From the NCBI RefSeq assembly GCF_003018115.1, contig NZ_CP027457.1: DNA of 64,000 nucleotides. One strand, 5' to 3'. Every line of letters begins with the position of its first letter. The stretch's first letter is position 1. The stretch is from Escherichia coli (lineage in GTDB: Bacteria > Pseudomonadota > Gammaproteobacteria > Enterobacterales > Enterobacteriaceae). A program made the translations under genes and the position numbers. Positions 1-62,063 of the stretch are shown piece after piece. The notes under the pieces were generated by a model. The model worked only from the letters and a program-made list of their open reading frames with translations. It ran no database searches and was not told the origin of the DNA.

Positions 1-2796
1 ATAACCATTAGGGAAAATGCTCGTGTTCGTGCCACCAAATGCACCGGAACTCTTGTGTTGGTGCGCACCGGCACTATTTGCGGTCCCGCTAATACTATGG
101 GTATGCGCCCCGGTGTTATTCGTGGATTTGGTTCCGTAATCAAACGACGATGTGGTTTTCGTCCCCAAATCCGTACTGGATGCGCTGGCGCTGTGGGTGT
201 GCGATTTAATGCCGTCCTGTTCCTGAGATAATACGGCCCGACCACTGGCGGGCTTGCCCTTAATCGTCCAGCCACGCATATCAGGGATCACGCCTGACGG
301 ATAAGCAACTGCAAGTTTCGGGTATGCAGATTTGTCAAAAGTCTGCCCCTGCATCAGGGCATAACCAGACGGAACGGTATCTGATGGCCACGGGATTGGT
401 GCACCGACTGGATAAAACTCTGCAGGAGGATGAGCCGAGGTGTAAAGCTGCGCCCACGGCGACCAGTTTGCGTCGGTCGTATCCCGTCGTGAACGAATAA
501 ATGCCGGAGCATGAGCACCGCTTGTACCACTCCAGCCGATGAGTAACTCACCTTCGCCAACGGCTGTCATCCCTTTCAGGTGAATGATATTTCCATACGC
601 TGTTGGATATCCGTTGTTATACACCTCGTATAACTCAAGACCTGCTGCCCCCTGCGTATTGTCTGTCAGCGCGGTTACCCGACCTTTTGAAGCCAGATTA
701 ACTGATGATACTGCTGTTCCACCTGACGGTAACGCCCCGATCTCTGATGCCGTTGGCTTATTTCTGGAGTTATAGTCCCTTCGCCAGCCAGGTGAATAAT
801 CTGTTCCGTGATTAATATAGGTAAACTGGGCGTTAGTTGTTCCACCACCAGTGGAGGTGGTCGGTGTGGTAATGCGGATCGTCATCGCTGACTTTATCCC
901 CATTACTTCAATGACAGCTCCGGCGAGATGAATATTACCGCAGTCAGTATCAGTAATGATTTTATTATTGCCATAAGACCAGGAACCCTTGCACATCCAG
1001 TATGGATGGTTAAATGCTCCCTGAGAATCCAGCCACTCGATAAACTGTGCAGTCGTCCAGTTTCCTGTTGTTGTGCTTACTGACCCACCGAAGGCACGGC
1101 AGGCACCAATATTTTTCGTAAAGGTATCTTTGCCAGGGATATCCGCACCGTTCTGATCTTTCTGCAGACGTTTCTCAGCATTGTCATTGGCTGCTTTTAC
1201 TGCCTTTGGTGTCGCGGCAAGCGTTTCAGACGTGCTGTTGGTCGCGCTGCTTAGCTGGATTATCCCTTTCTGTGCTGTCGTTGCATCCTGTGCGGTGTAT
1301 TTCCCGTTAGCCAGGTCATACGCGGCCTTAACGGCTTTTGGTGTTGCCGCCAGTGACTCGGAAGTGCTGTTAGTCGCACTACTGAGCTGTACTATCCCCT
1401 TTTTCGTCGTGCTCGCATCCTCAAGCGCCACGGCGGATGCAATATCCTCTGCCCGTTTTGCTGCTGTCTCGGCGCGCGTTGCTGCGGATTCTGCCGTACT
1501 TTTGCTCTGAGCTGCCGCCGTCGCACTGCCAGCAGCCTCTGTCGCCTTCGTGGATGCCGTCGTGGCGCTGCTCTTCGCTGCTGACGCTTGTCTGGTCGCC
1601 TCATCTTTTGAAGCAGACGCCGATGATGCCGATGACGCCGCCGAACTGGCTGACGATGCGGCAGCCGTTTTTGAGGATTCTGCGCTGGTTTCCGACGCTT
1701 TCGCGTTCGTTTCGGATGTCTTCGCTGCGGAAGCAGACCTCGCTGCTGCGCTGGCCTGTTCAGTGGCTTCGCCAGCCTTCGTTGTGGCTGTTGAAGCAGA
1801 CGATGCGGCGCTTTCTGCCGATTTTCCGGCGGCGGTGGCACTGGCTGAGGCCTGCCCGGCACTTGTTGACGCTGCACTGGCAGACGACGCAGCCGCTGTT
1901 TTTGAGCCTGCCGCAGCCGAGGCGCTCTGTCCCGCTGCCGTTTCAGAAGACCTGGCGTTCGTCTCTGACGTTTTTGCCGCCTTCGCGGAATTTCCTGCCG
2001 CTGTTGCCGAGGAAGCTGCGCTACTGGCGCTCGAGGATGCGTTCGTTTCTGATGATTTTGCCGCCTCTTTTGAAGCCGACGCATCCCGGGCTGAGGTGGC
2101 AGCTTCTGACGCTTTCGTGGTCGCGGTGGATGCAGAAGTGGCTGCTGATTGTTGTGACGCTGCAGCATTCGTTTCTGACGTTTTCGCGGCACTGGCACTG
2201 GTAGCTGCCGCGCTTTTTGAGGACTCTGCAGCGGCAGCACTTTTTGATGCTTCAGTGGCCTTTGTTGATGCCGTTCCTGCGCTGGAAGACGCTGACTGAG
2301 CCGACGAAGCGGCCTGTCCGGCTGACGTGCTGGCTGCGCGTGCTGAGCCTGCAGCATCAGTCGCATGGGTTGCCGCCTCACGGGCAGATGTGCCGGCATC
2401 GCCGGCTGACTTCTTCGCGGCTGCCGTGTTCTGTGCCACCGCGGACGCGTTACGCGCCACCTCTTCCACCATCAGTTCAAAACGGCGCAGAGCCTCCGGA
2501 CGGGCATCATCCTCCGTCATGGCACCGAGAAAATCATTCAGCGTACCGGGTCGGGAATCTTCATACACGGTGATGGTCCCGGCATGTGACGGCGGGAATC
2601 CTTCCACCAACAGAATAACGCTGTACTGACCGTACTCAACGTCCATGCTGTAACGCCCGGCTTCATCCGGATTTTCTGAGGCCAGCGTGTTCACCACCAC
2701 CGCGGTGCTGTTACGTTTTGCTTTCAGCTGGATTGTGCAGTTCTGTACCGGTTTTCCTGTGCCGTCTTTCAGTACACCTGAAATCTTTACTGCCAT
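1..2796 (-). CDS. stf: Side tail fibre protein Stf, partial (C-terminal part beyond window start)
   Basis: Minus-strand frame open from ATG near 2796 to window edge; N-terminus [31 protein letters not shown] matches lambda Stf; long Ala/Ser-rich repeats; not in ORF track because no stop inside window. Confidence 0.8.
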
Positions 2797-2860: not shown

Positions 2861-3460
2861 TCAGAACTTATAACCGACACCCACGATGAAACCGTCAGTG
2901 CGCCAGTCGCCACTGCCGGAGCCTTCATAAGCAATATCAATGGCCACGGATTCGGTCGGGTTAAACTGCACGCCAGCTCCCCACGCCAGAGACGTGTTGC
3001 TGTGGCGACCGTCATCACTTCCGGTCAGCACGTCGTGCGTTTTCCCCTTGTTGTCAGTTACGCGGAGATAATCCCCGGAGAAAGTCGACACACGGCTGTA
3101 AGCCATACCCGCCATCGCATACGCGCTGAACCATTCATTCACGCGCACAGACGGCCCCACCATCACGCTGAACCAGCGGTTACGCACGGAATCTTCATGC
3201 CAGCGGGTATCGCTGTAACGGGTAAGCTGGCGATTCTTGTCTCCTGCATAGCTGAATGACGTCACCAGCCCCAGTGTGTCCGTAAACTCATAACGGTATT
3301 TCACGTTAATCCCGTTAAGATCATCGCTGCCGGGAACGTTCGTCGAGGCATGAAGATACCCCGCGCTCAGCGTGGACTGATGTTCAGATGCCCATGCAGG
3401 CGCACCGGATACGGCCAGACAAATGGCTGCGGACAAAATGGCGGCATAAAGTTTACGCAT
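2861..3460 (-). CDS. lom: Outer membrane protein Lom (Ail/Lom family)
   Basis: 199 aa, signal peptide, beta-barrel-like sequence recognised as lambda Lom; position after J. Confidence 0.9.
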
Positions 3461-3529: not shown

Positions 3530-6500
3530 TCAACGAATACTGATGCCGGAAGCGGCTTTTTTGGTCACAATCACCGTACAGTCGGTGATATTGCCTGCCC
3601 CCTGATTGCCTTTCTGGAAAATCTTAAACTCCAGAGTGACGCTACCACCACCACTAGGCATATCAATAACTGCACTGTAACTACCGGGAATGGCCCCTTT
3701 AGTTTCTCTGGATGCGATTAATACGCCGTTTTTGCGAACTTCAAAACCATAACCCGTGTATCGCGTGCCTCCTGGGTTATTTCCGCTCCCCGGATCGTCA
3801 TACGCTATACCGTTAAAAATAATGGGCGGAATAATAATCTGGCGGTCAAAGTTATGATCATCGCTGATGGTGACTGTAACCGTACCGTTTGGTGTTTCCG
3901 TGTTACCCCACGTACCGACTTTTTTCGGGAAGGCTTTTGATACAGCTTTAACGAAATCCCCTCTGACCTGGGTCGCCTCCAGCATGCCCTTAATCGTACA
4001 GTTCTGGTTAATCGTGACATTGTTGAGCGTTCCTGAGTTCGCATTCACACTACCACTGATATCCGCATTTTTAGCGGTCAGCTTTCCGTCTGATGTCAGG
4101 GAAAATACCGGAGGACTGCCACCGCTGGTAATGGTGGGGGCCGTCAGGCGTTTCAGGAACACTTCATTCATGAATATCTGATCGCCCTGACCAACAAACA
4201 TCGGCTTTGTGTTGCCATTCGCAGGATTAATCATCGCAATCCTGTCTGCTGCCAGCAGCACCTGACTCTGCATGCCGTCAGGGGTGTTCTCAATACCGGC
4301 ACCGATACCCGCAATATAAAGGCGTCCGTCCTGCATCTGCTGCAGCTTCACTGCCCACATGCTGTTCAGGTTATTATTTGTATCAACCTGAACCTTCTGT
4401 ATCTGCTGGATTGCCGCACTCTGGTCTTCCAGTTTCTTATTGACGGTCTGTGTTATTTCATTGCTGACATCCGTTATGGACGTCCTGATTTCAGTCAGGT
4501 CAGGCGCAAGCTGACCGTTATCAATCTGCGTCCACAGCTCCTGAGCCAGATGGGTTTTCCCTATCTCGCCTTTGAAAAAATCCAGATAGCCTGATGCATC
4601 ATCACTCGGCTGACCGACAGCCTCCACGAATGCCGATTTGCCAACGGTGTTCACACTGCGAACGTAAAAATAATAATCATGGCCCGGTTTGATATTGATA
4701 CTGGCGGCTATCCAGTACAGTGCCGTACCAAGATAACGCGCGCTGGTTTCAACCTGCCTGATATCCGCAATCCGTTTTTCCGAGAACCAGAACTCAAACT
4801 GTACCGTCGGGTCATAAACCGCAAGATGCGGCGTGGCGGTTATCTGAAAATAGCCCGGCGTCAGCTCAATCCGCGACGGCGCTGCCGGTGCGGCAATCCG
4901 GAACGATACCGACGCCGGATCGCCCTGCTGCCCCCACGCATTTACTGCCCGGACTGTCAGCCTGTAGTTCCCCAGAGCCAGTTGTGTGAAGCGGTAAGTG
5001 GTTTCCGTCGTCCGGGCCGTGCTGACCAGCCGCTCACGGCCGTCATCCGCTGCCACGGTCAGGCGAAGCAGGAAGCTCACGCCCTTCACCACCTTCGGCG
5101 TGTCCCAGCGCGCCAGCACCTGGTATTCCCCGCTGTCTGCGGTGACTTCTGCGGTCAGGTGCTGCACCGCTGGCGGCGTGACACCATTTACCGTGCCGCT
5201 CTGGTCGCCGTCAAAGTGCGCCCCGTTATCCACGATGGCCTCTTTTTCCGGTACATGCTGCACGGCGGTGATGGCATACGTGCCGTCGTCGTTCTCACGG
5301 ATACTCACGCAGCGGAACAGGCGCTGGCGCAACGTCGACAGCTTCAGCCCCCATACGCTGTATTCAGCAACGCCGTCAGGAACACGGCTCACTTTCACCT
5401 TCACGCCGTCGGTGACGGACTGAACCTCCACGCTGACCGGACTCCCCTGCCCGTCAACCAGGCTTATCAGCGTGGTGCCGGAAGATGGCAGCGTGATTTC
5501 ACGGTCGAGCGTCAGCGTCCGGGTCTGGCTGTTTACCGCCAGCACGCGCCCGCCGGTGCGGATACCGGCATAGTCATCATCGCAGATTTCAATGACATCG
5601 CCCGGTACATGGCGAAGCCCTTCGGCACCCACGCTGAAGTCCACGGTCTGCGTTTCCAGCAGTTCTGTTTTAATCAGCCACAGCCCGGCGCGGTGTGCCT
5701 GCCCCCGGCTGGTACAGCCAAAAGCATCCATCTTCGTGACGTTACGACCGTAACGGGCAATGGCCTGCGTGTCCTCCACAAGCTCTGTCGCCGTCTCCCA
5801 GCCGTTATTCGGGTCAATCCAGTTCACCTCAACGGCATTATGGCGGTCCTTCAGGGCGCTGAAGCTGTAGCGGAACGGCGCACCATCATCCGGCATCACC
5901 ACATTACTGCGGTTATAGGTCCACACCTTATCCGACGGTCGGTCCTGCACGAACGTCAGCGTCTGCCCGTTCCATACCGGCATACAGCGCATCGCAGAGC
6001 AGAAATCACTGAGCACATCCCACGCCTTGCGCTGTGTGGTCAGGTACGCATTACAGGTGATGCGCGGCTCTGTGCCGCCAAAACCGTCCGGCACCGACTG
6101 ATCGCAATGCTGGCCGATGACATACAGCGCCCATTTGTCCACATCCGCCGCACCAAGACGTTTCCCCATGCCGTAGCGCGGATGGGTCAGCATATCCCAC
6201 AGACACCAGGCCATGTTGTTGCTGTATGCTGGCTTAAACGTTCCGTCCCAGATACCGCTGTATTGCCGCGTCTGCGGGTTATAGTTCGACGGCACCTGCA
6301 GAATGCGCCCGCGCAGATGATAATTACGGCTCACCTGCTGGCTGCCGAACTGCTCCGAATCCACCTGCACGCCGACCAGTGCCGTGTTCGGGTAGCACTG
6401 TTTCACATCGATGATTTCGGTGTATGACGACCAGAGCGTTTTGTTCTGCAGCTGGTCTGTGGTGCTGTCCGGCGTCATCCTGCGCATCCGTATATTGAAC

Positions 6501-7027
6501 GGGCGCGGCGGCAGGTTACCCACCACCACCGAGGCCAGATACTGCGAGGTGGTTTTGCCCTTAATGGTGATGTCTTTTTCCGTCACCCAGCCACCATTAC
6601 GCTGGATCTGAACCAGCAGGCGGACTTCCGACGGATTCCGGTCCCCCTTTGAGGTGGTTTCCACCAGTGCCTGCACGCCGAAGGTAAAGCGCAGACGGTC
6701 GATGTTTGCAGACGTAATGGTGCGGGTGATCGGCGTGTCATATTTCACTTCCGTACCCAGCACCGTCTCGGAGCCGGAGGATTCAAACCCCTCCGGCGGT
6801 GTCTGCTCCTGCTCACCGGCACGGAACACCACCGTGACACCGGAGATGTTGGTATTCCCCTCAGTGTCCAGCACCGGCGTACTGTTCAGCAGCACGCTTT
6901 TTAATCCATCCACCGGACCTTCAACCGGCCCTTCGCTGATGGCATCGATCACACTCAGCAGCTGCGTGGACTTCAGGTTGTCCTTCGCTTCGCGCGGGGT
7001 ATGCCCCTTACTGCTGCCTTTACCCAT
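3530..7027 (-). CDS. J: Tail tip / host specificity protein J (central tail fibre), C-terminal domain divergent from lambda
   Basis: 1165 aa; N-terminal ~840 aa recognised as lambda J; last ~320 aa differ. Confidence 0.95.
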
Positions 7028-9433: not shown

Positions 9434-11991
9434 CGTCCACCTCCGGAGAACAGGCCACCATCACGCATCTGTGTCTGAATTTCATCACGGGCACCCTTGC
9501 GGGCCATGTCATACACCGCCTTCAGAGCAGCCGGACCTATCTGCCCGTTCGTGCCGTCGTTGTTAATCACCACATGGTTATTCTGCTCAAACGTCCCGGA
9601 CGCCTGCGACCGGCTGTCTGCCATGCTGCCCGGTGTACCGACATAACCGCCGGTGGCATAGCCGCGCATCAGCCGGTAAAGATTCCCCACGCCAATCCGG
9701 CTGGTTGCCTCCTTCGTGAAGACAAATTCACCACGGTGAACAATCCCCGCTGGCTCATATTTGCCGCCGGTTCCCGTAAATCCTCCGGTTGCAAAATGGA
9801 ATTTCGCCGCAGCGGCCTGAATGGCTGTACCGCCTGACGCGGATGCGCCGCCACCAACAGCCCCGCCAATGGCGCTGCCGATACTCCCGACAATCCCCAC
9901 CATTGCCTGCTTAAGCAGAATTTCTGTCATCATGGACAGCACGGAACGGGTGAAGCTGCGCCAGTTCTGCTCACTGCCGGTCAGCATCGCCGCCATATTC
10001 TGTGCAATACCATCAAAGGTCTGCGTGGCTGCACTTTTTACCTGCGACATACTGTCCGTGGCGCTCTCTTCCCACTCACTCCAGCCGGACTTCAGGCCTG
10101 CCATCCAGCTCCCGCGAAGCTGGTCTTCAGCCGCCCAGGTCTTTTTCTGCTCTGACATGACGTTATTCAGCGCCAGCGGATTATCGCCATACTGTTCCTT
10201 CAGGCGCTGTTCCGTGGCTTCCCGTTCTGCCTGCCGGTCAGTCAGCCCCCGGCTTTTCGCATCAATGGCGGCCCGTTTTGCCCGTTGCTGCTGTGCGAAT
10301 TTATCCGCCTGCTGCGCCAGCGCGTTCAGGCGCTCCTGATACGTAACCTTGTCGCCAAGTGCAGCCAGCTGGCGTTTGTACTCCAGCGTCTCATCTTTAT
10401 GCGCCAGCAGGGATTTCTCCTGTGCAGACAGCTGGCGACGTTGCGCCGCCTCCTCCAGTACCGCGAACTGACTCTCCGCCTTCCACAAATCCCGGCGCTG
10501 CTGGCTGATTTTCTCATTTGCTCCGGCATGCTTCTCCAGCGTCCGGAGTTCTGCCTGAAGCGTCAGCAGGGCAGCATGAGCACTGTCTTCCTGACGATCG
10601 CCCGCAGACACCTTCACGCCGGACTGTTTCGGCTTTTTCAGCGTCGCTTCATAATCCTTTTTCGCCGCCGCCATCAGCGTGTTGTAATCCGCCTGCAGGA
10701 TTTTCCCGTCTTTCAGTGCCTTGTTCAGTTCTTCCTGACGGGCGGTATATTTCTCCAGCGGCGTCTGCAGGCGTTCATAAGCCTTCTGCGCCTCTTCGGT
10801 ATATTTCAGCCGTGACGCTTCGGTATCGCTCTGCTGCTGCGCATTTTTGTCCTGTTGACTCTGCTGCTCAGCCTTCTTTCGGGCGGCTTCAAGCGCAAGA
10901 CGGGCCTTTTCACGATCATCCCAGTAACGCGCCCGCGCTTCATCGTTAACAAAATAATCATCCTTGCGCAGATTCCAGATATCGTCCGCTTTCTTAAACG
11001 CGGCCTCTGCCTTAATCAGCATCTCCTGCGCGGTATCAGGACGACCAATATCCAGCACCGCATCCCACATGGATTTGAATGCCCGTGCTGTCCTGTCTGC
11101 CCAGGTTTCCAGCGTGCCCATGTTCTCTTTCAGGCGGCGGGTCTGGTCATCAAACCCTTTCGTTGCGGCCTCGTTCGCCGCCTGCAATGCCCCGGCTTCA
11201 TCGCCGGAACGCTGCAACTGAGCAACATACGCAATCTGCTCCGCCGTCACGTTATGGAACTGGCGTGCCATCGCCGTCAGCCCCGACGTCGGGTCTGTGG
11301 TCAGCTTCCCGAAGGCTTCAGCGACCTTGTCCACCTCCACGCCGGATGCAGAGGAGAAACGCGCCACACTCTGGCTGATGGACGCAATCTGAGCCTCACC
11401 GCTTACCCCCGCCTTAACCAGTGCGCTGAGTGACTCGCTGGTCTGGTTAAACGTCAGCCCTGCCGCCTGCCCGGCTCTGGACAGGACCAGCATACGATCT
11501 GCCGTCAGTCCCGCCTGATTGCCGGAAAGGACCAGCGTTTTGTTGAAATCGGACAGGGTTGAGTTGCCCTGATACCAGGCATACGCCAGCGCTCCGGTCG
11601 CCACCGCCAGCGAGGTAGCCCCCACCATCGGCAGGGTGATCGCACCGGCAAGCCCCCGGAACATGGGGATCATCCCGCCGAAGGAGTCCTTCACCTGACC
11701 CCCCTGTTGCAGCAGGATCAGCCACGGACTTTGCCCGCCTGCAAGCTGCGTGGCCACGTCGGTGAACTGTGCAGGCAGCATACGCATGGCGGCTTTATAC
11801 TGCCCGACGGAAATCCCCGCTTTCTGTGCAGCCAGCGCCTGTCGGCTCAGCGACTGTTCAACGACTGCCGCTGTTTTTTTCGCATCAGTTTCCGTACCGG
11901 AAAAATGACGCCTGACTCTGGCCATCTGCTCGTCAAATCTGGCCGCATCCAGACTTAAATCAACGACCAGATCGCCTACCGGTTCAGCCAT
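9430..11991 (-). CDS. H: Tail tape measure protein H
   Basis: 853 aa, lambda H sequence, coiled-coil rich. Confidence 0.95.
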   Translation of the reverse strand: MAEPVGDLVVDLSLDAARFDEQMARVRRHFSGTETDAKKTAAVVEQSLSRQALAAQKAGISVGQYKAAMRMLPAQFTDVATQLAGGQSPWLILLQQGGQVKDSFGGMIPMFRGLAGAITLPMVGATSLAVATGALAYAWYQGNSTLSDFNKTLVLSGNQAGLTADRMLVLSRAGQAAGLTFNQTSESLSALVKAGVSGEAQIASISQSVARFSSASGVEVDKVAEAFGKLTTDPTSGLTAMARQFHNVTAEQIAYVAQLQRSGDEAGALQAANEAATKGFDDQTRRLKENMGTLETWADRTARAFKSMWDAVLDIGRPDTAQEMLIKAEAAFKKADDIWNLRKDDYFVNDEARARYWDDREKARLALEAARKKAEQQSQQDKNAQQQSDTEASRLKYTEEAQKAYERLQTPLEKYTARQEELNKALKDGKILQADYNTLMAAAKKDYEATLKKPKQSGVKVSAGDRQEDSAHAALLTLQAELRTLEKHAGANEKISQQRRDLWKAESQFAVLEEAAQRRQLSAQEKSLLAHKDETLEYKRQLAALGDKVTYQERLNALAQQADKFAQQQRAKRAAIDAKSRGLTDRQAEREATEQRLKEQYGDNPLALNNVMSEQKKTWAAEDQLRGSWMAGLKSGWSEWEESATDSMSQVKSAATQTFDGIAQNMAAMLTGSEQNWRSFTRSVLSMMTEILLKQAMVGIVGSIGSAIGGAVGGGASASGGTAIQAAAAKFHFATGGFTGTGGKYEPAGIVHRGEFVFTKEATSRIGVGNLYRLMRGYATGGYVGTPGSMADSRSQASGTFEQNNHVVINNDGTNGQIGPAALKAVYDMARKGARDEIQTQMRDGGLFSGGGR

Positions 11992-14932: not shown

Positions 14933-15331
14933 TTATTGCATTCTGGCCAGGCCGCGCTCTGTCATTTCGGCTGCCACACCGGCAGAGACACGAAACGCCG
15001 TTCCCGGCAGCACAAATGCCACAGGTTCATCCCGCGTGGCGTGAAGTGCATCAGTATGCAGCTTCACCAGTGCCACGACCGTGACCAGTTCAGACGTATC
15101 CAGAATCACGGTATCCGGCTGCGCTGATCCCACCTCATTTTCATGTCCGGTCAGCACATTTTCCCGGCTGAGAGGGGTGTCCTGACCGGCAGTTTCATCC
15201 GTGTCATCAAGCTCCTCTTCCAGCTCTGCCACACGGAGCGCCAGTTCTTCTTTCGTCCCCGTCAGGCTGACATCACGGTTCAGTTGTTCACCCAGCGAGC
15301 GGAGACGGGCAATCAGTTCATCTTTCGTCAT
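14933..15331 (-). CDS. FI: DNA packaging protein FI
   Basis: ORF track 14933-15370; trimmed to MTKDELIARL start, 132 aa as lambda FI. Confidence 0.85.
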   Translation of the reverse strand: MTKDELIARLRSLGEQLNRDVSLTGTKEELALRVAELEEELDDTDETAGQDTPLSRENVLTGHENEVGSAQPDTVILDTSELVTVVALVKLHTDALHATRDEPVAFVLPGTAFRVSAGVAAEMTERGLARMQ

Positions 15332-15372
15332 GGACTCCTCCACAGAGAAACAATGGCCCCGAAGGGCCATGA

Positions 15373-47429: not shown

Positions 47430-47616
47430 TTTAATATTTATCAAATAGTTAACACGCATGACTCTTGAAATCCATAAATTCAAGCGCAGTGCCCAGCCAT
47501 CCCGATACCGCTGCTTTCACCAAATCCTTAGTGCTTCTTTCGTGTTTTTCTATTGTCATAATGGTTATCTCTAAAAAAGAGGTAAGATGCGTACTACTTA
47601 CTCGCCGTTATTGGTA

Positions 47617-48636
47617 TTATTCAGAAAAAGTGAGTAAGACTTTGCAGCAATGTTTTTGATCCTGTTCAAATAAACTAATGGCATCAGCAACATGCTGGAA
47701 ATCAAACGTATGGGTAATTAATTTTTCTGGTTTAATTAACCCTTTACTTAACCAGTCGATAACGACCGGAAATTTATTTGCATTTAAGCGTGAAGAGAAA
47801 ATAGAGAGTTCTTTTCCGGTAATTCCTTGCTGAATCACTTCAGACGGTTCACTGGAGAACCCCATCAATACAATACGTGCCGCTGGAGAAGCCAGCGTTA
47901 CGGCCTCTTTCAAGATAGAAGGATGACAAGCCGCATCGATAATTAATGTCGGCTTGATGCCTTTTTCAGTGAAAATCTCGCCAAGCGGTGTCTGGCTGTT
48001 ATTAATCGCCCAGTCAGCCCCGCTCTCTTTCGCTTTTTCCAGTCGTTCATCAATGCGATCGGCAACAATCACATTTTTAACGTTATAGACGCCTTTTAAT
48101 ACCTGAACGATCGTCAGGCCGATTGGACCGGCACCATAAACCAGAACGGTATCATTTTCTGTCGGTTGACCATGTCCGGTTACGTTAGCCGCAATGGTAA
48201 AAGGTTCGATCATTACCGCATATTGATCGGCCACTGCTTCAGGAATTTTCCACGCATTTTTTGCCGGAACCACGGCATATTCACTGAAACCACCGTCAGC
48301 GTGCACACCTAATACAGCCAGTGTCATACAAACGTTCGGTTTACCTATAGAGCACGGATAGCAATGCCCACAGCTGACCACCGGATCGACAGCAACACGT
48401 TCACCGACTCTGGCGCTTTCCACGCCGTCACCCACTGCATCAATGACGCCAAAGAATTCATGACCAATGACGCGCGGATATTTCGCAAAAGGATTATGCC
48501 CACGATAAATATGGCTATCTGAACCACAAATTCCGGCAAGTTTCACTTTTACTCGTACTTCACCCGCTGACGGGGTGGGTATTTCACGTTCGACAATCGC
48601 CAGTTGATTCGGTTTTTCAATTAATATGCTTTTCAT
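47617..48636 (-). CDS. rspB: Zn-dependent alcohol dehydrogenase family protein RspB
   Basis: ORF track 47617-48660 trimmed to MKSILIEKPN, 339 aa; GHEFFG and Cys zinc ligands. Confidence 0.9.
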   Translation of the reverse strand: MKSILIEKPNQLAIVEREIPTPSAGEVRVKVKLAGICGSDSHIYRGHNPFAKYPRVIGHEFFGVIDAVGDGVESARVGERVAVDPVVSCGHCYPCSIGKPNVCMTLAVLGVHADGGFSEYAVVPAKNAWKIPEAVADQYAVMIEPFTIAANVTGHGQPTENDTVLVYGAGPIGLTIVQVLKGVYNVKNVIVADRIDERLEKAKESGADWAINNSQTPLGEIFTEKGIKPTLIIDAACHPSILKEAVTLASPAARIVLMGFSSEPSEVIQQGITGKELSIFSSRLNANKFPVVIDWLSKGLIKPEKLITHTFDFQHVADAISLFEQDQKHCCKVLLTFSE

Positions 48637-48647
48637 TATCTTACTCC

Positions 48648-49862
48648 TTACCAGTTCCACAGCGTGCCATCTTCCAGACGTGCGACTGGTAGATAAGCAG
48701 GTTCATAGGGATATTTCGCCGCCAGCTTTTCATCGAATTCGATACCAAGACCCGGTTTGTCTCCCGGATGCATATAGCCGTTATCGAAAGTCCAGTTGTG
48801 CGGGAAGACTTCGAGCATTTGTTCGGAATAACCCATGTATTCCTGGACACCGAAATTGGGGACCCACAGATCAAAATGCAGCGCCGCAGCCATGCAGACT
48901 GGTGACAAATCGGAAGGACCGTGTGAGCCAGTACGTACCTGATACAGCGAAGCAAAATCGGCAATCCGGCGCATACCGGTAATTCCGCCTGTATGGGTCA
49001 GCGTGGTGCGGATATAATCGATAAGTTGCTCTTCAATCAGTTGCTTGCAGTCCCAGATGCTGTTGAAGACTTCACCCACTGCGATGGGTGTGACGGTATG
49101 TTGGCGAATGAGACGGAAGCATTCCTGGTTTTCCGCAGGCGTCGGGTCTTCCATCCAGAACATGCGATAATCTTCAATGCTTTTACCAAAGCGCGCCGCT
49201 TCAATAGGCGTTAAGCGATGGTGCATGTCATGCAGCAAATGTTCATTAAAACCAAACTTGTTACGTACCGCGTCAAACAATTTCGGCATGAAATCGAGGT
49301 ATTTCTCCGTCGACCACAGCTGCTCTTCCGGCCACTGTCCTTTGGTTGCGGGTTCATAAGCCAGACCTTTACCTTTCGACATGCCGTAGGTGGTTTTCAT
49401 ACCAGGGATTCCGCACTGCACGCGGATGGCTTTGAATCCCAGCTCCTGATGACGGGCATAATCATCCAGAGCTTCATCAATACTGTGACCGGTGGTATGG
49501 CAATAAACCATCACCCCTTCACGAGACGCGCCGCCGAGTAACTGGTAAAGCGGCATGTTGGCAGCTTTGGCTTTAATATCCCACAGCGCCATATCAACCG
49601 CTGAAATGGCCGACATCGTAACCGGACCGCGACGCCAGTAAGCACCTTTATAGAAAAACTGCCAGATATCTTCGATACGGTGCGCATCGCGACCAATAAG
49701 CTGCGGACAAAGGTGATCCTGCAAATAAGAGGCCACGGAAAGCTCACGTCCATTGAGGGTGGCATCCCCAAGGCCCGTAATACCGTCCTCAGTGGTGATT
49801 TTTAATGTGACGAAATTACGCCCCGGACAGGTAACAAAAACTTCAGCCTTTACGATCTTCAT
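48648..49862 (-). CDS. rspA: Starvation-sensing protein RspA (enolase superfamily, mannonate dehydratase-like)
   Basis: ORF track 48648-49895 trimmed to [10 protein letters not shown], 404 aa. Confidence 0.9.
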
Positions 49863-50067
49863 GTTCGATTCCTTGCATCGCTTGTCGTGATGCATGAAAT
49901 CTACGCAACTGAGCTACTACCATACAAGTATGAAGATCAAAAAAAGCCGGAGTGATCACAAAAAAAGGCGTATATTTTCGCCATGAATGGTTGACAAAAG
50001 ATGAAATAGAGTACCTTTTATCAGCTGACGCTTCCTCGTATCTTATTGATAAAATGGATTTATGTTC

Positions 50068-50394
50068 CTACGTGCGCCCCCAGCCCGCAACAATGATCAA
50101 CATGCCGCAAAGCGCAATCAACGCACCCATCCAGTCATAAAGAGTCAGTTTCACGCCATCCACAACGCGCAGCCACATCAACGCCGTGCAGACATAAACG
50201 CCACCATAAGCCGCGTAAACACGCCCACTCGCCGCAGGATGCAACGTTAACAACCAGACAAACAGCGCCAGTGAAATCCCCGCCGGAAGCAACAGCCAGA
50301 TACTGGCGTTTCGTTTTAACCACAACCAGGGCAGAAAGCATCCAATAATTTCACACAGCGCAGTAGCAAAAAATAGTAACGTTGTTTTAATCAT
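50068..50394 (-). CDS. ynfA: UPF0060 inner membrane protein YnfA
   Basis: 108 aa, four TM segments. Confidence 0.85.
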
Positions 50395-50528
50395 CTTTGT
50401 CACTTATTGACATCATGTATAGTTATAGGGCCACATAATATCATCAATATAAACACCCTCCTGGTACGTTTTGCGTTCGCAGTGGATGGTGTAGAATCAC
50501 CTTTAATCATTCATACAGGGAATGAATT

Positions 50529-50870
50529 ATGAAAATCACTCTCAGCAAACGAATCGGCCTGCTCGCTTTTCTGCTGCCTTGCGCACTGGCATTGAGCACA
50601 ACTGTTCATGCCGAAACTAACAAACTGGTGATTGAGTCTGGCGACAGTGCACAAAGCCGCCAGCACGCCGCTATGGAAAAAGAGCAATGGAATGACACGC
50701 GCAATCTGCGTCAGAAAGTGAATAAACGCACTGAAAAAGAGTGGGATAAAGCCGACGCCGCTTTTGATAACCGCGATAAATGTGAGCAAAGCGCCAACAT
50801 CAATGCCTACTGGGAGCCCAATACTTTGCGCTGCCTGGACCGTCGAACTGGCCGCGTTATTACCCCCTAA
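50529..50870 (+). CDS. ynfB: Secreted protein YnfB
   Basis: 113 aa with signal peptide. Confidence 0.85.
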
Positions 50871-50904
50871 CCTGTTATTGATTTAAGGAATGTAAGGACA
50901 CGTT

Positions 50905-51465
50905 ATGCCAAGCGCCCACAGTGTTAAGCTACGCCCGCTGGAGCGTGAAGATTTACGCTATGTACATCAACTCGACAATAACGCCAGTGTGATGCGTTAC
51001 TGGTTTGAGGAACCCTACGAAGCCTTTGTTGAACTCTCTGATCTGTATGATAAGCATATTCACGATCAGAGCGAACGGCGCTTTGTGGTGGAATGTGACG
51101 GCGAAAAAGCCGGTCTGGTGGAGCTGGTGGAAATTAACCATGTTCATCGCCGCGCAGAATTTCAGATAATTATCTCCCCGGAGTATCAGGGGAAAGGTCT
51201 GGCAACCCGTGCCGCCAAATTAGCAATGGACTATGGCTTCACCGTTCTCAATCTCTATAAGCTGTATCTGATCGTCGATAAAGAGAATGAAAAAGCGATT
51301 CACATTTACCGCAAGCTTGGCTTTACGGTTGAAGGTGAATTGATGCATGAGTTCTTTATTAATGGTCAATATCGTAATGCCATTCGCATGTGTATATTCC
51401 AGCATCAGTATCTGGCAGAGCACAAAACACCGGGTCAGACTCTCCTGAAGCCGACCGCACAATAG
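50905..51465 (+). CDS. speG: Spermidine N1-acetyltransferase SpeG (GNAT)
   Basis: 186 aa, SpeG sequence. Confidence 0.95.
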
Positions 51466-51467
51466 CA

Positions 51468-52178
51468 TTAATAATAATCGATCGTATTTTTGATGGTGTA
51501 AACCCGTTCGACGGCGGGTTTTACTCCTTCATCAACAATGATCAGCTGACAGTCCACCGGATTGGCGTGACTGTCATATTCACAGCTCTGTTTTACATTA
51601 CCAACTCGTTGATTATTCAGTAAAGTAACCGCTGTGTAATCTAATTTTTTGATCGGGTCCGTTGATGGCGTGGCGCTGACAGATAATGTTTTGTCGTTAC
51701 TTTTCGTGGTTTTACCCAGTGGATAACCCTGATCATCATAGCGATATTCCATCTGCATTTGTTTGCTGCTGGCTTTAATCACGAAGCCATTATCATCGGT
51801 TTCCCAACTCACCCCGGCGGAAGGTAATTCCGCTAGCTGGCATTTTCCCTGTAAACGTACTCTCTTCTCCAGCGTCTCGGCATCACGGTAATAATTGGCG
51901 TCCAGTACCAGAGCGACCACGGTATTATTTTCCAGATCCAGTAATTCGAGTGAATCAAAACAGCCTTCTTCCGACAAAGTCCCCGAAACACGTTTCGTCA
52001 CTTCACCTTGCTCATCCATTAATGTCTGAGTGAAATCTTTTACCGGACCACGCAGCGGATCAAAATCGAATTCATTAGAGAAACTGGCCATCTCAGGAGT
52101 AAATGAAAGTGTTACCTCTGTGCGGTCACATCCTGTGAGGAATATCGCGAGTAAGCATGGTAGTAATTTGTATTTCAC
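51468..52178 (-). CDS. ynfC: Lipoprotein YnfC
   Basis: ORF track 51468-52214; lipobox LTGC; start probably the alternative codon at V13 giving 236 aa. Confidence 0.8.
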   Translation of the reverse strand: MKYKLLPCLLAIFLTGCDRTEVTLSFTPEMASFSNEFDFDPLRGPVKDFTQTLMDEQGEVTKRVSGTLSEEGCFDSLELLDLENNTVVALVLDANYYRDAETLEKRVRLQGKCQLAELPSAGVSWETDDNGFVIKASSKQMQMEYRYDDQGYPLGKTTKSNDKTLSVSATPSTDPIKKLDYTAVTLLNNQRVGNVKQSCEYDSHANPVDCQLIIVDEGVKPAVERVYTIKNTIDYY

Positions 52179-52285
52179 AACAGTCACCAGAGAGTAGAGA
52201 TGATTCTCAATCATAGTAGCAAATACAGTACTTTACACGTTAAATGCTATGCTTAAAGAAGTTATCTTCGCGTAAGGAGCTTATG

Positions 52286-52591
52286 ATGAAACTCTCAACC
52301 TGCTGTGCCGCGCTTCTGCTCGCCCTCGCCTCACCCGCGGTACTTGCCGCGCCGGGATCCTGTGAGCGCATACAGAGCGATATATCACAGCGCATTATCA
52401 ATAATGGCGTACCCGAAAGCAGCTTCACGTTAAGTATTGTACCCAATGACCAGGTTGATCAGCCTGATTCCCAGGTCGTCGGGCATTGTGCTAATGATAC
52501 GCATAAAATTCTCTACACCCGCACCACCAGCGGTAACGTCTCTGCTCCCGCGCAGTCTACCCAGGATGGCGCGCCTGCCGAACCGCAGTAA
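52286..52591 (+). CDS. ynfD: Secreted protein YnfD
   Basis: ORF track 52244-52591 trimmed to MKLSTCCAALLLALASPAVLA, 101 aa. Confidence 0.8.
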   Translation: MKLSTCCAALLLALASPAVLAAPGSCERIQSDISQRIINNGVPESSFTLSIVPNDQVDQPDSQVVGHCANDTHKILYTRTTSGNVSAPAQSTQDGAPAEPQ

Positions 52592-52789
52592 CACATTATC
52601 GACTGAACGCCGGATATGACACATCCGGCGATTTGAACATACAACATAATCCCACCATATTACTCATACCCTTCTATTGATGTGGATTAATAATTCTTAA
52701 CCCAAAATGGGTAGACTTCCTCTATTGTTAGCGCGCTAAATATTCAATATATAAACATTTATATAACGATAAAGAACAGGGAGTGAGTT

Positions 52790-55216
52790 ATGTCAAAAAA
52801 TGACCGAATGGTGGGCATCAGCCGCAGAACACTCGTTAAATCTACCGCGATAGGTTCTCTGGCGCTGGCTGCAGGCGGTTTTTCTTTGCCGTTTACCCTG
52901 CGCAGTGCAGCAGCAGCGGTACAACAGGCCCGCGAAAAAGTGGTCTGGGGTGCCTGTTCCGTCAACTGTGGTAGCCGCTGTGCACTTCGTCTACATGTTA
53001 AAGATAATGAAGTGACCTGGGTGGAAACTGACAATACCGGCAGCGATGAGTACGGCAACCATCAGGTACGCGCCTGTTTGCGCGGTCGCTCCATCCGCCG
53101 GCGTATTAATCATCCCGATCGCTTGAATTACCCAATGAAACGCGTGGGTAAACGCGGTGAAGGCAAATTCGAACGGATTAGCTGGGATGAAGCCCTGGAT
53201 ACTATCGCCAGTAGCCTGAAGAAAACCGTCGAACAATATGGCAATGAGGCTGTATATATTCAGTACTCTTCGGGGATCGTTGGCGGCAATATGACCCGCT
53301 CTTCGCCATCAGCCTCGGCGGTCAAACGCCTGATGAACTGCTACGGCGGTTCACTCAATCAGTATGGCTCCTACAGCACCGCACAAATTTCCTGTGCCAT
53401 GCCCTACACCTACGGCAGTAATGATGGCAACAGCACCACGGATATTGAAAACAGCAAGCTGGTCGTGATGTTTGGTAACAACCCGGCAGAAACCCGCATG
53501 AGCGGCGGTGGCATCACTTATCTTCTTGAAAAAGCGCGCGAGAAATCGAACGCCAAAATGATTGTTATCGATCCGCGATATACCGATACGGCTGCTGGTC
53601 GTGAAGATGAATGGCTTCCTATTCGCCCGGGCACCGATGCCGCGCTGGTTGCGGGGATTGCCTGGGTATTGATTAACGAAAATCTCGTTGATCAACCTTT
53701 TCTCGATAAATACTGCGTCGGCTATGACGAAAATACCTTACCCGCAGATGCACCCAAAAATGGTCACTATAAAGCCTATATTCTTGGTGAAGGAAACGAT
53801 AAAACAGCGAAAACGCCGCAGTGGGCTTCGCAAATTACCGGTATCCCGGTGGACCGTATCATCAAACTGGCGCGTGAAATTGGCACAGCAAAACCCGCTT
53901 ATATCTGCCAGGGCTGGGGGCCACAACGCCAGGCAAACGGCGAGCTGACCGCACGCGCTATTGCTATGTTGCCTATTCTGACGGGCAATGTCGGCATCAG
54001 CGGCGGAAATAGTGGCGCGCGTGAATCGACCTATACCATTACCATAGAACGCCTGCCGGTGCTGGATAATCCGGTCAAAACGTCAATCTCCTGCTTCAGC
54101 TGGACAGATGCTATCGATCATGGCCCGCAAATGACGGCAATCCGCGACGGCGTCCGGGGCAAAGATAAACTGGATGTGCCCATTAAGTTCATCTGGAACT
54201 ACGCGGGAAATACCCTGGTTAATCAGCATTCTGACATCAACAAAACGCATGAAATTCTGCAGGACGAATCGAAATGCGAAATGATTGTGGTCATCGAAAA
54301 CTTTATGACCTCATCGGCAAAATATGCCGACATTCTGCTGCCAGACCTGATGACCGTTGAGCAGGAAGATATTATTCCTAACGACTACGCCGGTAACATG
54401 GGATATCTCATTTTCCTCCAGCCAGTCACCAGCGAAAAATTCGAACGTAAACCGATTTACTGGATCCTGAGTGAAGTCGCGAAACGTCTTGGACCTGACG
54501 TCTATCAAAAGTTCACTGAAGGTCGCACGCAGGAACAATGGTTACAACATCTGTACGCCAAAATGCTTGCCAAAGATCCGGCGTTACCGTCTTACGACGA
54601 ACTGAAAAAAATGGGTATCTATAAGCGTAAAGATCCCAATGGTCATTTTGTCGCCTACAAAGCATTTCGTGACGACCCCGAGGCAAATCCACTTAAAACA
54701 CCTTCCGGTAAGATTGAAATTTATTCCAGCAAGCTGGCTGAAATTGCCCGTACCTGGGAACTGGAAAAAGATGAAGTGATAAGCCCACTGCCAGTTTATG
54801 CCTCTACCTTTGAAGGCTGGGACTCACCTGAACGTAGAACCTTCCCACTGCAACTGTTTGGTTTCCATTACAAATCCCGTACTCACTCGACCTACGGCAA
54901 TATTGATCTCCTGAAGGCTGCCTGCCGTCAGGAGGTGTGGATCAACCCTATAGATGCGCAGAAACGTGGGATTGCCAACGGCGATATGGTGCGGGTGTTT
55001 AACAATCGTGGCGAAGTTCGGCTACCAGCCAAAGTGACACCACGTATTCTCCCTGGAGTTAGCGCTATGGGCCAGGGAGCCTGGCACGAGGCCAATATGT
55101 CTGGCGATAAAATCGACCATGGAGGCTGTGTGAATACGCTAACCACTCTGCGCCCTTCACCACTGGCGAAGGGAAACCCGCAGCATACGAATCTGGTCGA
55201 GATCGAAAAAATATAA
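52790..55216 (+). CDS. ynfE: Molybdopterin oxidoreductase, DMSO/selenate reductase-type catalytic subunit YnfE (Tat signal)
   Basis: 808 aa, twin-arginine motif SRRTLVK, Cys cluster CSVNCGSRC. Confidence 0.9.
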   Translation: MSKNDRMVGISRRTLVKSTAIGSLALAAGGFSLPFTLRSAAAAVQQAREKVVWGACSVNCGSRCALRLHVKDNEVTWVETDNTGSDEYGNHQVRACLRGRSIRRRINHPDRLNYPMKRVGKRGEGKFERISWDEALDTIASSLKKTVEQYGNEAVYIQYSSGIVGGNMTRSSPSASAVKRLMNCYGGSLNQYGSYSTAQISCAMPYTYGSNDGNSTTDIENSKLVVMFGNNPAETRMSGGGITYLLEKAREKSNAKMIVIDPRYTDTAAGREDEWLPIRPGTDAALVAGIAWVLINENLVDQPFLDKYCVGYDENTLPADAPKNGHYKAYILGEGNDKTAKTPQWASQITGIPVDRIIKLAREIGTAKPAYICQGWGPQRQANGELTARAIAMLPILTGNVGISGGNSGARESTYTITIERLPVLDNPVKTSISCFSWTDAIDHGPQMTAIRDGVRGKDKLDVPIKFIWNYAGNTLVNQHSDINKTHEILQDESKCEMIVVIENFMTSSAKYADILLPDLMTVEQEDIIPNDYAGNMGYLIFLQPVTSEKFERKPIYWILSEVAKRLGPDVYQKFTEGRTQEQWLQHLYAKMLAKDPALPSYDELKKMGIYKRKDPNGHFVAYKAFRDDPEANPLKTPSGKIEIYSSKLAEIARTWELEKDEVISPLPVYASTFEGWDSPERRTFPLQLFGFHYKSRTHSTYGNIDLLKAACRQEVWINPIDAQKRGIANGDMVRVFNNRGEVRLPAKVTPRILPGVSAMGQGAWHEANMSGDKIDHGGCVNTLTTLRPSPLAKGNPQHTNLVEIEKI

Positions 55217-55273
55217 CCCACTACAACCATAAATTCTGGCATGACATTTTGTTTGAAAAGCAATAAGTGAGTA

Positions 55274-57700
55274 ATGATGAAAATCCATACCACAGAGGCG
55301 CTCATGAAGGCTGAAATCAGCCGTAGAAGTCTGATGAAAACCTCCGCACTTGGCAGTCTTGCGCTGGCAAGCAGTGCTTTCACTCTGCCATTTTCCCAAA
55401 TGGTCCGAGCGGCAGAGGCACCGGTAGAAGAGAAAGCGGTCTGGAGTTCCTGCACCGTTAACTGCGGGAGCCGCTGTCTGTTACGTTTGCATGTGAAAGA
55501 TGACACCGTGTACTGGGTGGAGTCTGATACGACAGGTGACGACGTCTACGGTAATCATCAGGTTCGTGCGTGTTTACGCGGGCGCTCTATCCGCCGACGG
55601 ATGAATCATCCTGATAGGTTGAAATATCCCATGAAGCGCGTCGGCAAGCGCGGTGAAGGTAAATTTGAACGGATAAGTTGGGACGAAGCCCTGGATACCA
55701 TCAGTGATAATCTTCGGCGGATCCTGAAAGATTACGGCAATGAGGCTGTACATGTCCTGTACGGAACAGGCGTAGATGGCGGAAACATCACCAACTCAAA
55801 CGTCCCGTACCGTCTGATGAACTCATGTGGTGGTTTTCTCAGTCGCTATGGCAGCTACAGTACCGCACAGATCAGTGCCGCAATGAGTTATATGTTCGGT
55901 GCCAATGATGGCAACAGCCCGGATGATATCGCCAATACGAAACTGGTCGTTATGTTCGGAAATAACCCGGCAGAAACACGGATGAGCGGCGGTGGTGTCA
56001 CTTACTACGTCGAGCAAGCCCGCGAACGTTCAAACGCACGCATGATCGTCATCGATCCACGTTATAACGACACAGCTGCCGGGCGTGAAGATGAATGGCT
56101 GCCCATTCGCCCTGGCACCGATGGCGCACTGGCCTGTGCGATTGCCTGGGTACTGATTACTGAAAACATGGTCGATCAGCCATTTCTCGACAAATATTGT
56201 GTTGGTTACGATGAAAAAACGCTGCCCGCCAACGCACCACGTAACGCGCATTATAAAGCCTATATTCTGGGCGAAGGGCCTGACGGCATAGCTAAAACGC
56301 CGGAATGGGCAGCAAAAATCACCAGCATCCCGGCAGAAAAAATTATCCAGTTGGCACGAGAGATCGGTTCAGCAAAACCTGCTTATATTTGTCAGGGTTG
56401 GGGGCCACAACGACACTCCAACGGCGAACAAACATCCCGCGCTATTGCCATGCTTTCCGTTCTCACCGGTAACGTCGGCATAAACGGCGGCAACTCAGGC
56501 GTACGCGAAGGTAGCTGGGATCTGGGGGTAGAATGGTTCCCGATGCTCGAGAATCCTGTTAAAACGCAGATTTCCGTCTTTACATGGACAGATGCCATCG
56601 ACCATGGTACGGAAATGACCGCGACCCGTGATGGTGTTCGTGGAAAAGAAAAACTGGATGTCCCCATCAAGTTTTTATGGTGCTACGCCAGTAACACATT
56701 GATCAATCAACATGGCGACATCAATCACACCCATGAGGTGCTTCAGGATGACAGCAAGTGCGAGATGATTGTTGGCATTGACCACTTCATGACTGCCTCG
56801 GCTAAGTATTGCGATATCCTGTTGCCCGACCTGATGCCAACAGAGCAAGAAGACCTTATCTCTCATGAATCTGCAGGGAATATGGGCTATGTGATCCTCG
56901 CCCAACCCGCAACCTCAGCAAAATTTGAACGCAAACCCATCTACTGGATGCTGAGTGAAGTCGCCAAACGCTTAGGACCAGACGTTTATCAAACCTTTAC
57001 TGAAGGTCGCAGTCAGCATGAATGGATCAAATATCTCCATGCGAAAACGAAGGAACGTAACCCTGAGATGCCCGACTACGAGGAGATGAAAACGACCGGG
57101 ATCTTTAAGAAAAAATGCCCGGAAGAACACTACGTCGCTTTCCGCGCATTCCGTGAAGATCCACAGGCAAACCCGTTGAAAACACCTTCGGGGAAAATCG
57201 AAATTTATTCTGAACGACTGGCGAAGATTGCAGATACCTGGGAATTGAAAAAAGATGAAGTTATTCATCCCCTTCCAGCTTATACGCCAGGTTTTGATGG
57301 CTGGGACGATCCCCTGCGGAAAACCTATCCACTGCAGTTAACGGGCTTCCACTACAAAGCGCGTACCCACTCCAGCTACGGCAATATTGATGTGTTACAG
57401 CAGGCCTGCCCACAAGAGGTGTGGATCAACCCCATTGATGCTCAGGCACGCGGTATCCGTCATGGCGATACCGTGCGGGTATTTAACAATAATGGAGAAA
57501 TGCTGATTGCCGCAAAAGTGACTCCGCGTATTCTGCCTGGCGTTACCGCCATCGGGCAAGGTGCGTGGCTTAAAGCGGATATGTTTGGTGACCGGGTCGA
57601 TCACGGCGGCAGTATTAATATTCTGACCTCTCACCGCCCTTCACCGCTGGCAAAGGGAAACCCGTCGCACAGCAATCTTGTCCAGATCGAAAAGGTTTAA
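55274..57700 (+). CDS. ynfF: DMSO reductase-type catalytic subunit paralog YnfF (Tat signal)
   Basis: 808 aa, tandem paralog of ynfE. Confidence 0.9.
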   Translation: MMKIHTTEALMKAEISRRSLMKTSALGSLALASSAFTLPFSQMVRAAEAPVEEKAVWSSCTVNCGSRCLLRLHVKDDTVYWVESDTTGDDVYGNHQVRACLRGRSIRRRMNHPDRLKYPMKRVGKRGEGKFERISWDEALDTISDNLRRILKDYGNEAVHVLYGTGVDGGNITNSNVPYRLMNSCGGFLSRYGSYSTAQISAAMSYMFGANDGNSPDDIANTKLVVMFGNNPAETRMSGGGVTYYVEQARERSNARMIVIDPRYNDTAAGREDEWLPIRPGTDGALACAIAWVLITENMVDQPFLDKYCVGYDEKTLPANAPRNAHYKAYILGEGPDGIAKTPEWAAKITSIPAEKIIQLAREIGSAKPAYICQGWGPQRHSNGEQTSRAIAMLSVLTGNVGINGGNSGVREGSWDLGVEWFPMLENPVKTQISVFTWTDAIDHGTEMTATRDGVRGKEKLDVPIKFLWCYASNTLINQHGDINHTHEVLQDDSKCEMIVGIDHFMTASAKYCDILLPDLMPTEQEDLISHESAGNMGYVILAQPATSAKFERKPIYWMLSEVAKRLGPDVYQTFTEGRSQHEWIKYLHAKTKERNPEMPDYEEMKTTGIFKKKCPEEHYVAFRAFREDPQANPLKTPSGKIEIYSERLAKIADTWELKKDEVIHPLPAYTPGFDGWDDPLRKTYPLQLTGFHYKARTHSSYGNIDVLQQACPQEVWINPIDAQARGIRHGDTVRVFNNNGEMLIAAKVTPRILPGVTAIGQGAWLKADMFGDRVDHGGSINILTSHRPSPLAKGNPSHSNLVQIEKV

Positions 57701-57710
57701 GGAGTAGCCC

Positions 57711-58328: not shown

Positions 58329-58329
58329 A

Positions 58330-59184: not shown

Positions 59185-59226
59185 CAAATTGGTGCGGGGC
59201 AACCCGCACATTTCAGGATGTTAGGA

Positions 59227-59841: not shown

Positions 59842-60034
59842 GATGACCGTAATATTGCCGGATAGTGGCGATTACGCGCAATTCGGCAATAATAGGTTAC
59901 AGTGTCACGTTTTTTGTCTCTTAAAGCACGCACTGCTTTTGCAGCTGGCCTCTTTTGCCGCAAAATAGTCGCCCGTGTTTCATTGCCCATTTCTGCTCAT
60001 GCATCATCTACACACCTATCCGGATCTGCGCACT

Positions 60035-61939: not shown

Positions 61940-62063
61940 CACTAACTCCACCGTTATGCTTCACAAATATAAACCAGGAAAATAATTAACCTTGAAAGTC
62001 TAAGTTATGCTTTCCTGGCCCAAATTGAGATAGCGCAAATTTTGGTAGAACAGTTAAAAAATG

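Follow-up and report, generated by a model that had tools for sequence, protein, structure and literature searches.

At one end of a 64,000-nucleotide stretch of Escherichia coli DNA (contig NZ_CP027457.1; the whole stretch is hereafter the window), a minus-strand reading frame runs off the edge through a long tract rich in Ala, Ser and Thr. An initial annotation, made from the sequence alone, had described the frame as a side tail fibre gene and the tract as an unusually long low-complexity repeat, the copy number of which could alter the length of the fibre. This raises the question of what the tract is and how its length changes, and whether the gene that carries it encodes a functional fibre. 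Translation of the minus strand from position 2796 to position 1 yielded 932 codons without a stop, in a frame that leaves the window, as had been claimed. Many complete genomes of E. coli contain the 2796 nucleotides at 100% identity, and all 932 codons are identical to those of WP_000279080.1, which is the same protein, found in many E. coli strains, CFS3246 among them, in prophages at the Qin site; its RefSeq name is "prophage tail fiber N-terminal domain-containing protein" (gene of 3075 nt, 1024 codons). A search of complete E. coli genomes with stf returned 113 records whose best match reached 99% identity or more, and some stf-related sequence was found in 5128 of 5426 complete genomes, with roughly 17,600 stf-like places overall. 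The assignment as a side tail fibre with a lambda-Stf N-terminus was confirmed by a full-length match of residues 1–134 to PF08400, the prophage tail fibre N-terminal domain (E=2.5e-71), and by the match of the collar domain to the Ur-lambda structure 9e7m (E=6e-51).

The genomic setting was established from the identical records, where J and lom lie upstream of stf, and tfaQ, pinQ, ydfK, ynfT and a truncated ydfJ lie downstream. The remaining 92 codons of stf, followed by tfa, are located past window position 1, which bears out the expectation that a receptor-binding tip and a tfa chaperone gene would be found beyond the edge. The order J–lom–stf–tfa is that of a lambdoid tail module, J and lom being present in the window and tfaQ directly downstream in the identical records. 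The site is the Qin prophage locus, but in these records it holds a lambdoid prophage of full length, in which head, tail and lysis genes are present. The Tfa protein encoded downstream is 99.5% identical to K-12 TfaR and matches PHROG 105 (tail fibre assembly, E=6e-99); Stf itself is assigned by PHROGs to tail fibre. The gene is an ordinary, already annotated side tail fibre gene of a lambda-like E. coli prophage: its protein is annotated in RefSeq and has a near-identical K-12 paralogue in StfR, and a structural model has been published for the homologous part of lambda Stf. Fragments of this Stf protein have been given names such as "short-chain fatty acid transporter", which are wrong. The coordinates of the features considered are collected in Table 1.

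Table 1. Features of the stf locus, with positions in the window, residues of the Stf protein where applicable, and the evidence for each
Feature	Residues	Window position	Strand	Evidence
stf, first 932 of 1024 codons	1–932	1..2796	−	open frame; 100% nt identity to the WP_000279080.1 gene (3075 nt)
N-terminal collar domain	1–94	2515..2796	−	PDB 9e7m (Ur-lambda tail fibre protein), E=6e-51
Linker and helix start	95–111	2464..2514	−	homology to lambda Stf; AF2 helix from about residue 98
Predicted coiled-coil rod, 49 heptads x-S-A-x-x-A-x, 346 aa	112–457	1426..2463	−	periodicity, HMM, conservation, AF2
105-residue block without counterpart in lambda Stf	304–408	1573..1887	−	three-way alignment with lambda and mEp460 Stf
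Phage_fiber_2 copy 1	465–508	1273..1404	−	PF03406
Phage_fiber_2 copy 2, absent from lambda Stf and K-12 StfR	509–552	1141..1272	−	PF03406; also matches Mu tail fibre S residues 97–175
Mu S-like central shaft domain	539–695	712..1182	−	PDB 8ju3 "Tail fiber protein S/S'" residues 178–334, domain E=8e-69
Connecting region	696–793	418..711	−	StfR homology from residue 766; PHROG tail-fibre families over residues 693–799
Start of T4 gp37-like receptor-binding tip	794–932 of 794–1024	1..417	−	PDB 2xgf gp37 residues 28–242, E ~1e-83; PF07484
lom (Ail/Lom outer-membrane protein), upstream neighbour as in lambda		2861..3460	−	PF06316, E=1.4e-119; annotation in identical records
J (central tail fibre / tip attachment protein)		3530..7027	−	six GpJ-specific Pfam domains; gpJ in annotation
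Spurious +1-frame ORF in the tract, 335 aa		1392..2399	−	openness equals codon-shuffle and synonymous-resample expectation; 0–3 stops in relatives
Spurious antisense ORF, 255 aa		1437..2204	+	beats codon shuffles (p ~0.001); largely CT|A junction depletion; up to 6 stops in relatives
Spurious antisense ORF, 249 aa		1550..2299	+	openness within codon-shuffle expectation; 0–3 stops in relatives

The tract had been described as more than 400 residues of GC-rich, low-complexity repeats. Its composition is as extreme as that description implies, with 74% Ala+Ser+Thr (37% Ala, 24% Ser, 12% Thr), no Pro and four large hydrophobic residues, and its G+C content reaches 62%, versus 50.7% for the window. 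However, it extends over 346 residues rather than more than 400, and its order is not that of low-complexity repeats but of strict, register-perfect heptads with selected core positions. Residue autocorrelation, assessed against composition shuffles, gave z=7.3–9.9 at all multiples of 7 up to lag 119 and z of 5.5 or more at all multiples of 7 up to lag 154, with nothing comparable at other lags. In the heptad table, Ala occupied one core position in 47 of 48 cases and another in 35 of 49, and the position beside the latter was Ser in 37 of 49. A heptad-register HMM detected no stutter or skip across the 49 heptads. AF2, run as a monomer with a 26-sequence alignment, predicted a helix over residues 98–458 with moderate confidence (mean pLDDT 67) and a single fold-back artefact; the same artefact was observed with AlphaFold3 by the authors of the Ur-lambda study (PMC12617516). 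That study, which combined cryo-EM and cryo-ET with AF3, places a flexible linker at residues 92–101 of lambda Stf and a trimeric coiled coil, the proximal part of the fibre, at residues 102–393; a hinge and a distal domain come after it (PMC12617516). A long proximal alpha-helical coiled coil after the collar, as in lambda-type Stf proteins, is indicated here by the 49 unbroken heptads, the AF2 helix and the homology to lambda. The tract is therefore taken to be the proximal coiled-coil rod of the fibre, and its trimeric state is suggested by homology and by the literature.

The length of the tract was compared with those of lambda and of the wider family. The tract of lambda Stf, with 241 residues, is not of equal length: the one described here is longer by 105 residues, exactly 15 heptads. 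With the textbook coiled-coil rise of 0.1485 nm per residue, the rod is computed to measure roughly 51 nm versus about 36 nm in lambda, a surplus of about 15.6 nm. For length diversity, relatives were sampled with the collar domain alone, among IMG/VR loci and among representatives of 50%-identity clusters; a full-protein search was left aside, since its best 120 matches were all near-identical fragments. Tract lengths were taken from the heptad-register HMM, as regular-expression anchors missed proteins with other downstream modules. The tract was exactly 346 residues long in 49 of the 74 IMG/VR loci with a collar domain and a measurable tract (124–332 in the others), as it also is in E. coli K-12 StfR, and ranged from 0 to 346 residues among the cluster representatives with a collar domain. 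In these sequences, 346 residues is both the modal class among relatives and the upper limit of the family, with lambda as a short exception. The tract is thus unusually long by comparison with lambda, but not by comparison with its own family.

Beyond the rod, two stretches matched PF03406, Phage_fiber_2 (E=4.5e-37), a family characterized by one or more repeats of about 42 residues of the AATPKAVK type. These two stretches are the near-identical duplicated motif pointed out in the initial annotation. They recur with a period of 44 residues and share 24 of 27 amino acids over the core but just 59 of 81 nucleotides, so the duplication is old. According to a motif pattern match, complete relatives carry 0, 1, 2 or 3 copies in 23, 27, 9 and 6 loci, respectively. 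The second copy leads into the Mu S-like shaft, for which no Pfam family reached the cut-off over residues 539–695; in a PDB sequence search, residues 490–568 also matched the phage Mu tail fibre S structure 5yvq. At the tip, Pfam placed the Collar domain PF07484 at residues 798–845. The full 1024-residue protein contains seven HxH motifs, the first three inside the window, which we take to be the metal-binding motifs seen in the needle of gp37 (structure 2xgf). In its gp37-like tip, which carries HxH motifs, and in having a Tfa chaperone of its own, the protein agrees with a lambda-type Stf (2xgf; seven HxH; PHROG 105). Matches in the PDB to Mu S (8ju3, 5yvq; residues 490–695 here) and to T4 gp37 (2xgf; needle and tip with HxH, residues 794–1024 here) concern single modules; the collar domain and the heptad rod drew no match to either protein in the sequence search of the PDB. 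On these alignments, the protein is a mosaic, with a head and rod of lambda/StfR type, a middle of Mu S type and a tip of gp37/lambda type. Horizontal exchange of tail fibre modules has long been known. The mosaic make-up is in line with such exchange and with the documented recombination of lambda stf–tfa with Rac and Qin prophages (PMC3945230).

Comparison with complete fibres showed which parts are held in common. K-12 Rac StfR (NP_415890.2, 1120 aa) has the same collar domain and a 346-residue tract, with 89% identity over window residues 1–565, and its tip (StfR 876–1120) is 78% identical by blastp to residues 766–1024 here; the locus has the same order lom–stf–tfa–pin, with a Tfa 99.5% identical. 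StfR differs in having one Phage_fiber_2 repeat rather than two and a longer, unrelated centre (StfR 522–875 versus window residues 566–765). Ur-lambda Stf (774 aa; PMC12617516, PDB 9e7m) shares the collar, the proximal coiled coil of the same heptad motif, the gp37-like tip and the Tfa chaperone gene, but its tract is 15 heptads shorter, it has a single fibre repeat, and its own hinge and distal residues 390–530 stand in place of the Mu S-like domain. Among isolated phages, mEp460 (Stf VUF53340.1, 1023 aa) has a gene with 98.2% nucleotide identity, and the side tail fibre genes of PhiR42_1, PhiR26_1 and PhiR68_2 are 97–98% identical over nt 1–2707. Their fibres share the layout of the one described here, and tfa and invertase genes follow downstream as well, but the hypervariable loops of the tip, at about residues 905–960, differ; for mEp460 these loops are the main difference.

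The rod and the distal modules occur in various combinations among relatives. The 346-residue rod was found joined to at least nine distal-module clusters among 67 complete relatives, and the distal module of the window was also found with tracts of 331 and 126 residues. A rule by which rod length and distal length would compensate each other was considered and rejected: a shorter rod often comes with a longer distal part, yet in lambda-like fibres both are short. An invertase gene does adjoin the fibre genes: 98 bp separate tfaQ from pinQ, which lies downstream on the other strand. Crossover sites flanking the 3' end of stf and tfa were searched for in the reference locus between 7300 and 10500, where none were found, just imperfect inverted pairs of 14–17 nt, and the space between tfaQ and pinQ is too short to hold another tfa or an stf'. 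A Pin-invertible segment of the Mu G, P1 C or e14 P type was rejected for this lack of flanking inverted crossover repeats.

With high probability, the window holds most of the gene for the side tail fibre Stf of a lambda-like prophage, one of full length that occupies the Qin site of E. coli, and the fibre works along the following lines. By homology with lambda, the collar domain would dock the fibre on the junction between tail tube and tip; the role of this domain in docking on the tail is described for Ur-lambda (PMC12617516). After a short linker, the 346 residues would form a parallel trimeric alpha-helical coiled coil of 49 unbroken heptads with a core of small residues (Ala/Ser), that is, a thin and stiff proximal rod of about 51 nm. 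The two 44-residue Phage_fiber_2 repeats and the Mu S-like shaft domain would provide the hinge and the distal shaft. The gp37-like tip, with its Collar domain and seven HxH motifs, would fold with assistance from the Tfa chaperone encoded downstream, as its relatives suggest, and would bind a receptor in the outer membrane. By analogy with lambda Stf and T4 gp37, this receptor may be of OmpC or LPS type, a class that is given no more finely because the tip loops around residues 905–960 differ from those of lambda, mEp460 and T4. Binding of the tip would then speed adsorption before J engages its own receptor. The homotrimeric state, with four fibres on the tail tip, is established for Ur-lambda only (PMC12617516).

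A different view of the tract is that it is a hypermutable, contingency-type tandem repeat or a disordered low-complexity linker, whose copy number slips often and so varies the length of the fibre. Such a view draws on the extreme composition, on tract lengths that span 0–346 residues in the family, and on the position of StfR as an extreme low-complexity outlier of the K-12 proteome (PMC12695832). The DNA does not bear it out. Tandem Repeats Finder at low threshold found no array in the DNA but two tiny rows (scores 43 and 50), and a DNA repeat search returned only degenerate copies, 60–89% identical, nearly all at multiples of 21 nt. The absence of a tandem array indicates that length variation does not arise by slippage. 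Moreover, 47 distinct DNA variants of the 346-residue class, with a mean pairwise identity of 93.5% and a minimum of 85.5%, were all of identical length. Among these variants, amino-acid changes affected 18 of 147 sites at three conserved heptad positions versus 85 of 196 at the other four (Fisher p=1.6e-10), and synonymous-only variation was higher at the conserved positions; purifying selection thus acts on the core of the heptad, a pattern that marks a structural core. Two of the three conserved positions would make up the a/d core. Together with the perfect register and the predicted helix, these data largely refute slippage and disorder, and we regard that view of the tract as highly improbable. 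When relatives anchored at both ends were compared, length differences within the tract were 105, 112 and 14 residues, each divisible by 7; the one exception, of 220 residues (31×7+3), was in a locus with a register break in the HMM, and such breaks occurred occasionally in the more distant cluster representatives. A recent internal duplication was rejected as the source of the 105 extra residues: the block shares 57 of 105 amino acids (54%) and 159 of 315 nucleotides (50%) with the in-register block 192–296, barely above the 43% amino-acid background for in-register blocks. Changes in length are rare and mostly register-preserving block indels, not slippage. The proposal that repeat number could change the length of the fibre thus holds on an evolutionary scale, where few discrete length classes are seen, and fails for slippage within the 346-residue class.

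The coding status of the locus can be doubted in two other ways. One is that a cryptic prophage, like Qin in K-12, has left the gene behind as an inert relic, intact by chance and giving no functional fibre. The Qin locus is indeed defective in K-12, IS elements lie within the prophage in reference genomes, and alleles of this same stf gene split by IS3 occur in at least nine complete genomes, from which it follows that stf is dispensable to the host. Against this, the reading frame is intact over 1024 codons, the module of head, tail, J, lom and tfa around it is complete, the amino-acid pattern across the 47 variants is that of purifying selection, and isolated phages carry near-identical stf genes; a relic is therefore unlikely. 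The other doubt concerns the long open frames that overlap the tract in another frame or on the opposite strand, one of which might be a real gene. These frames had been noticed and called spurious in the initial annotation, and they are present at 335, 255 and 249 aa. Four of the five alternative frames over the tract are as open as codon-shuffle and synonymous-resample nulls predict. The fifth, the antisense frame of the ORF at 1437–2204(+), has 258 open codons versus about 100±35 in the nulls (p ~0.001), which would favour an overlapping gene. However, nearly all stops in this frame come from CT|A codon junctions, and such junctions, one observed in the tract versus 9.2 expected, are depleted across the long ORFs of the window as well (observed/expected 0.45); after correction for this background about four would be expected versus one observed, a difference that is not significant (Poisson p ~0.09). 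The same frame is interrupted by 0–6 stops in relatives. An overlapping gene is accordingly the least probable of the alternatives; the long alternative-frame ORFs are artefacts of composition, by-products of GCN/AGC/ACN codon usage, and annotators should be wary of them.

For the reading as a working side tail fibre, a further and tentative suggestion concerns the role of the rod. The Ala/Ser-core rod might possibly be a length-setting module, in which selection would hold discrete, register-preserving classes (346, about 233–241 and about 216 residues) that set the reach of the side fibre relative to J or to host surface layers, with 346 residues as the upper limit of the family. As a discovery, the analysis is modest; its yield is the clean re-description of an apparent low-complexity repeat as a register-perfect coiled coil of 49 heptads with a small-residue core. 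The surplus of exactly 15 heptads over lambda offers a simple handle for the engineering of Stf chimeras and for studies of fibre reach and adsorption.

Rod and distal lengths were compared among relatives of the side tail fibre Stf, the rod being the coiled-coil heptad tract and the distal part the protein beyond it. Rods of 216–233 residues tend to go with much longer distal parts, of 757–932 residues, as seen in IMG/VR loci sharing the Stf collar domain (L028, L049, L060, L061 and L074) and in others. A simple rule of compensation between the two lengths was nevertheless rejected, because in lambda-like fibres neither the rod nor the distal part is long.

The antisense strand of the heptad tract carries a long open frame, whose run of 258 codons compares with about 100 expected from codon shuffles. 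Its openness is largely due to a strong depletion of CT|A codon junctions in the tract, with 1 observed versus 9.2 expected. The frame is not conserved among relatives, where 0–6 stops fall in it.

Features discussed, in window positions unless a record is named
Feature	Position	Strand	Remarks
Antisense ORF across heptad tract	1437-2204	+	open 258 codons
IS3-split stf, example	L086 (E. coli strain 6409) 3679-5134		about codon 726 of stf, window ~620
FI-like ORF	14933-15370	-	145 aa
Chromosomal flank (rspAB, ynfA-H, dmsD, clcB, bioD, mlc)	47517-62735
pinQ, serine invertase gene	L001 (reference E. coli record) 9748-10338	opposite to tfaQ	beyond window, ~1.2 kb past window position 1

Exactly the stf allele of the window also occurs split by an IS3-family element, in nine or more complete genomes of E. 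coli, and the two halves appear there as separate proteins in RefSeq annotation. Several NCBI fragments of this fibre (P0014, P0030, P0038 and P0043) bear the name 'short-chain fatty acid transporter, partial', evidently a mis-annotation.

Megablast against strain CFS3246, whose Stf protein is identical, showed an alignment break in the gpFI region (15257-15314), where about 56 window bases were unaligned and the flanking pieces overlapped by 16 nt in CFS3246; no tandem repeat was detected at this break. FI is annotated at 109 aa in CFS3246, shorter than the FI-like ORF of the window. Identity to CFS3246 was 99.98% within the prophage versus 98.9% in the chromosomal flank. Between rspB and the prophage integrase, CFS3246 carries an IS2 copy that is absent from the window (around 47517-47521).

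In L001, pinQ lies downstream of tfaQ across a gap of 98 bp, a placing matched in the K-12 Rac prophage, where pinR adjoins stfR-tfaR. Since neither inverted crossover sites flanking the stf 3' end and tfa (search of L001 7300-10500) nor alternative stf'/tfa' genes near pinQ were found in this record, the PinQ invertase appears to be orphaned.
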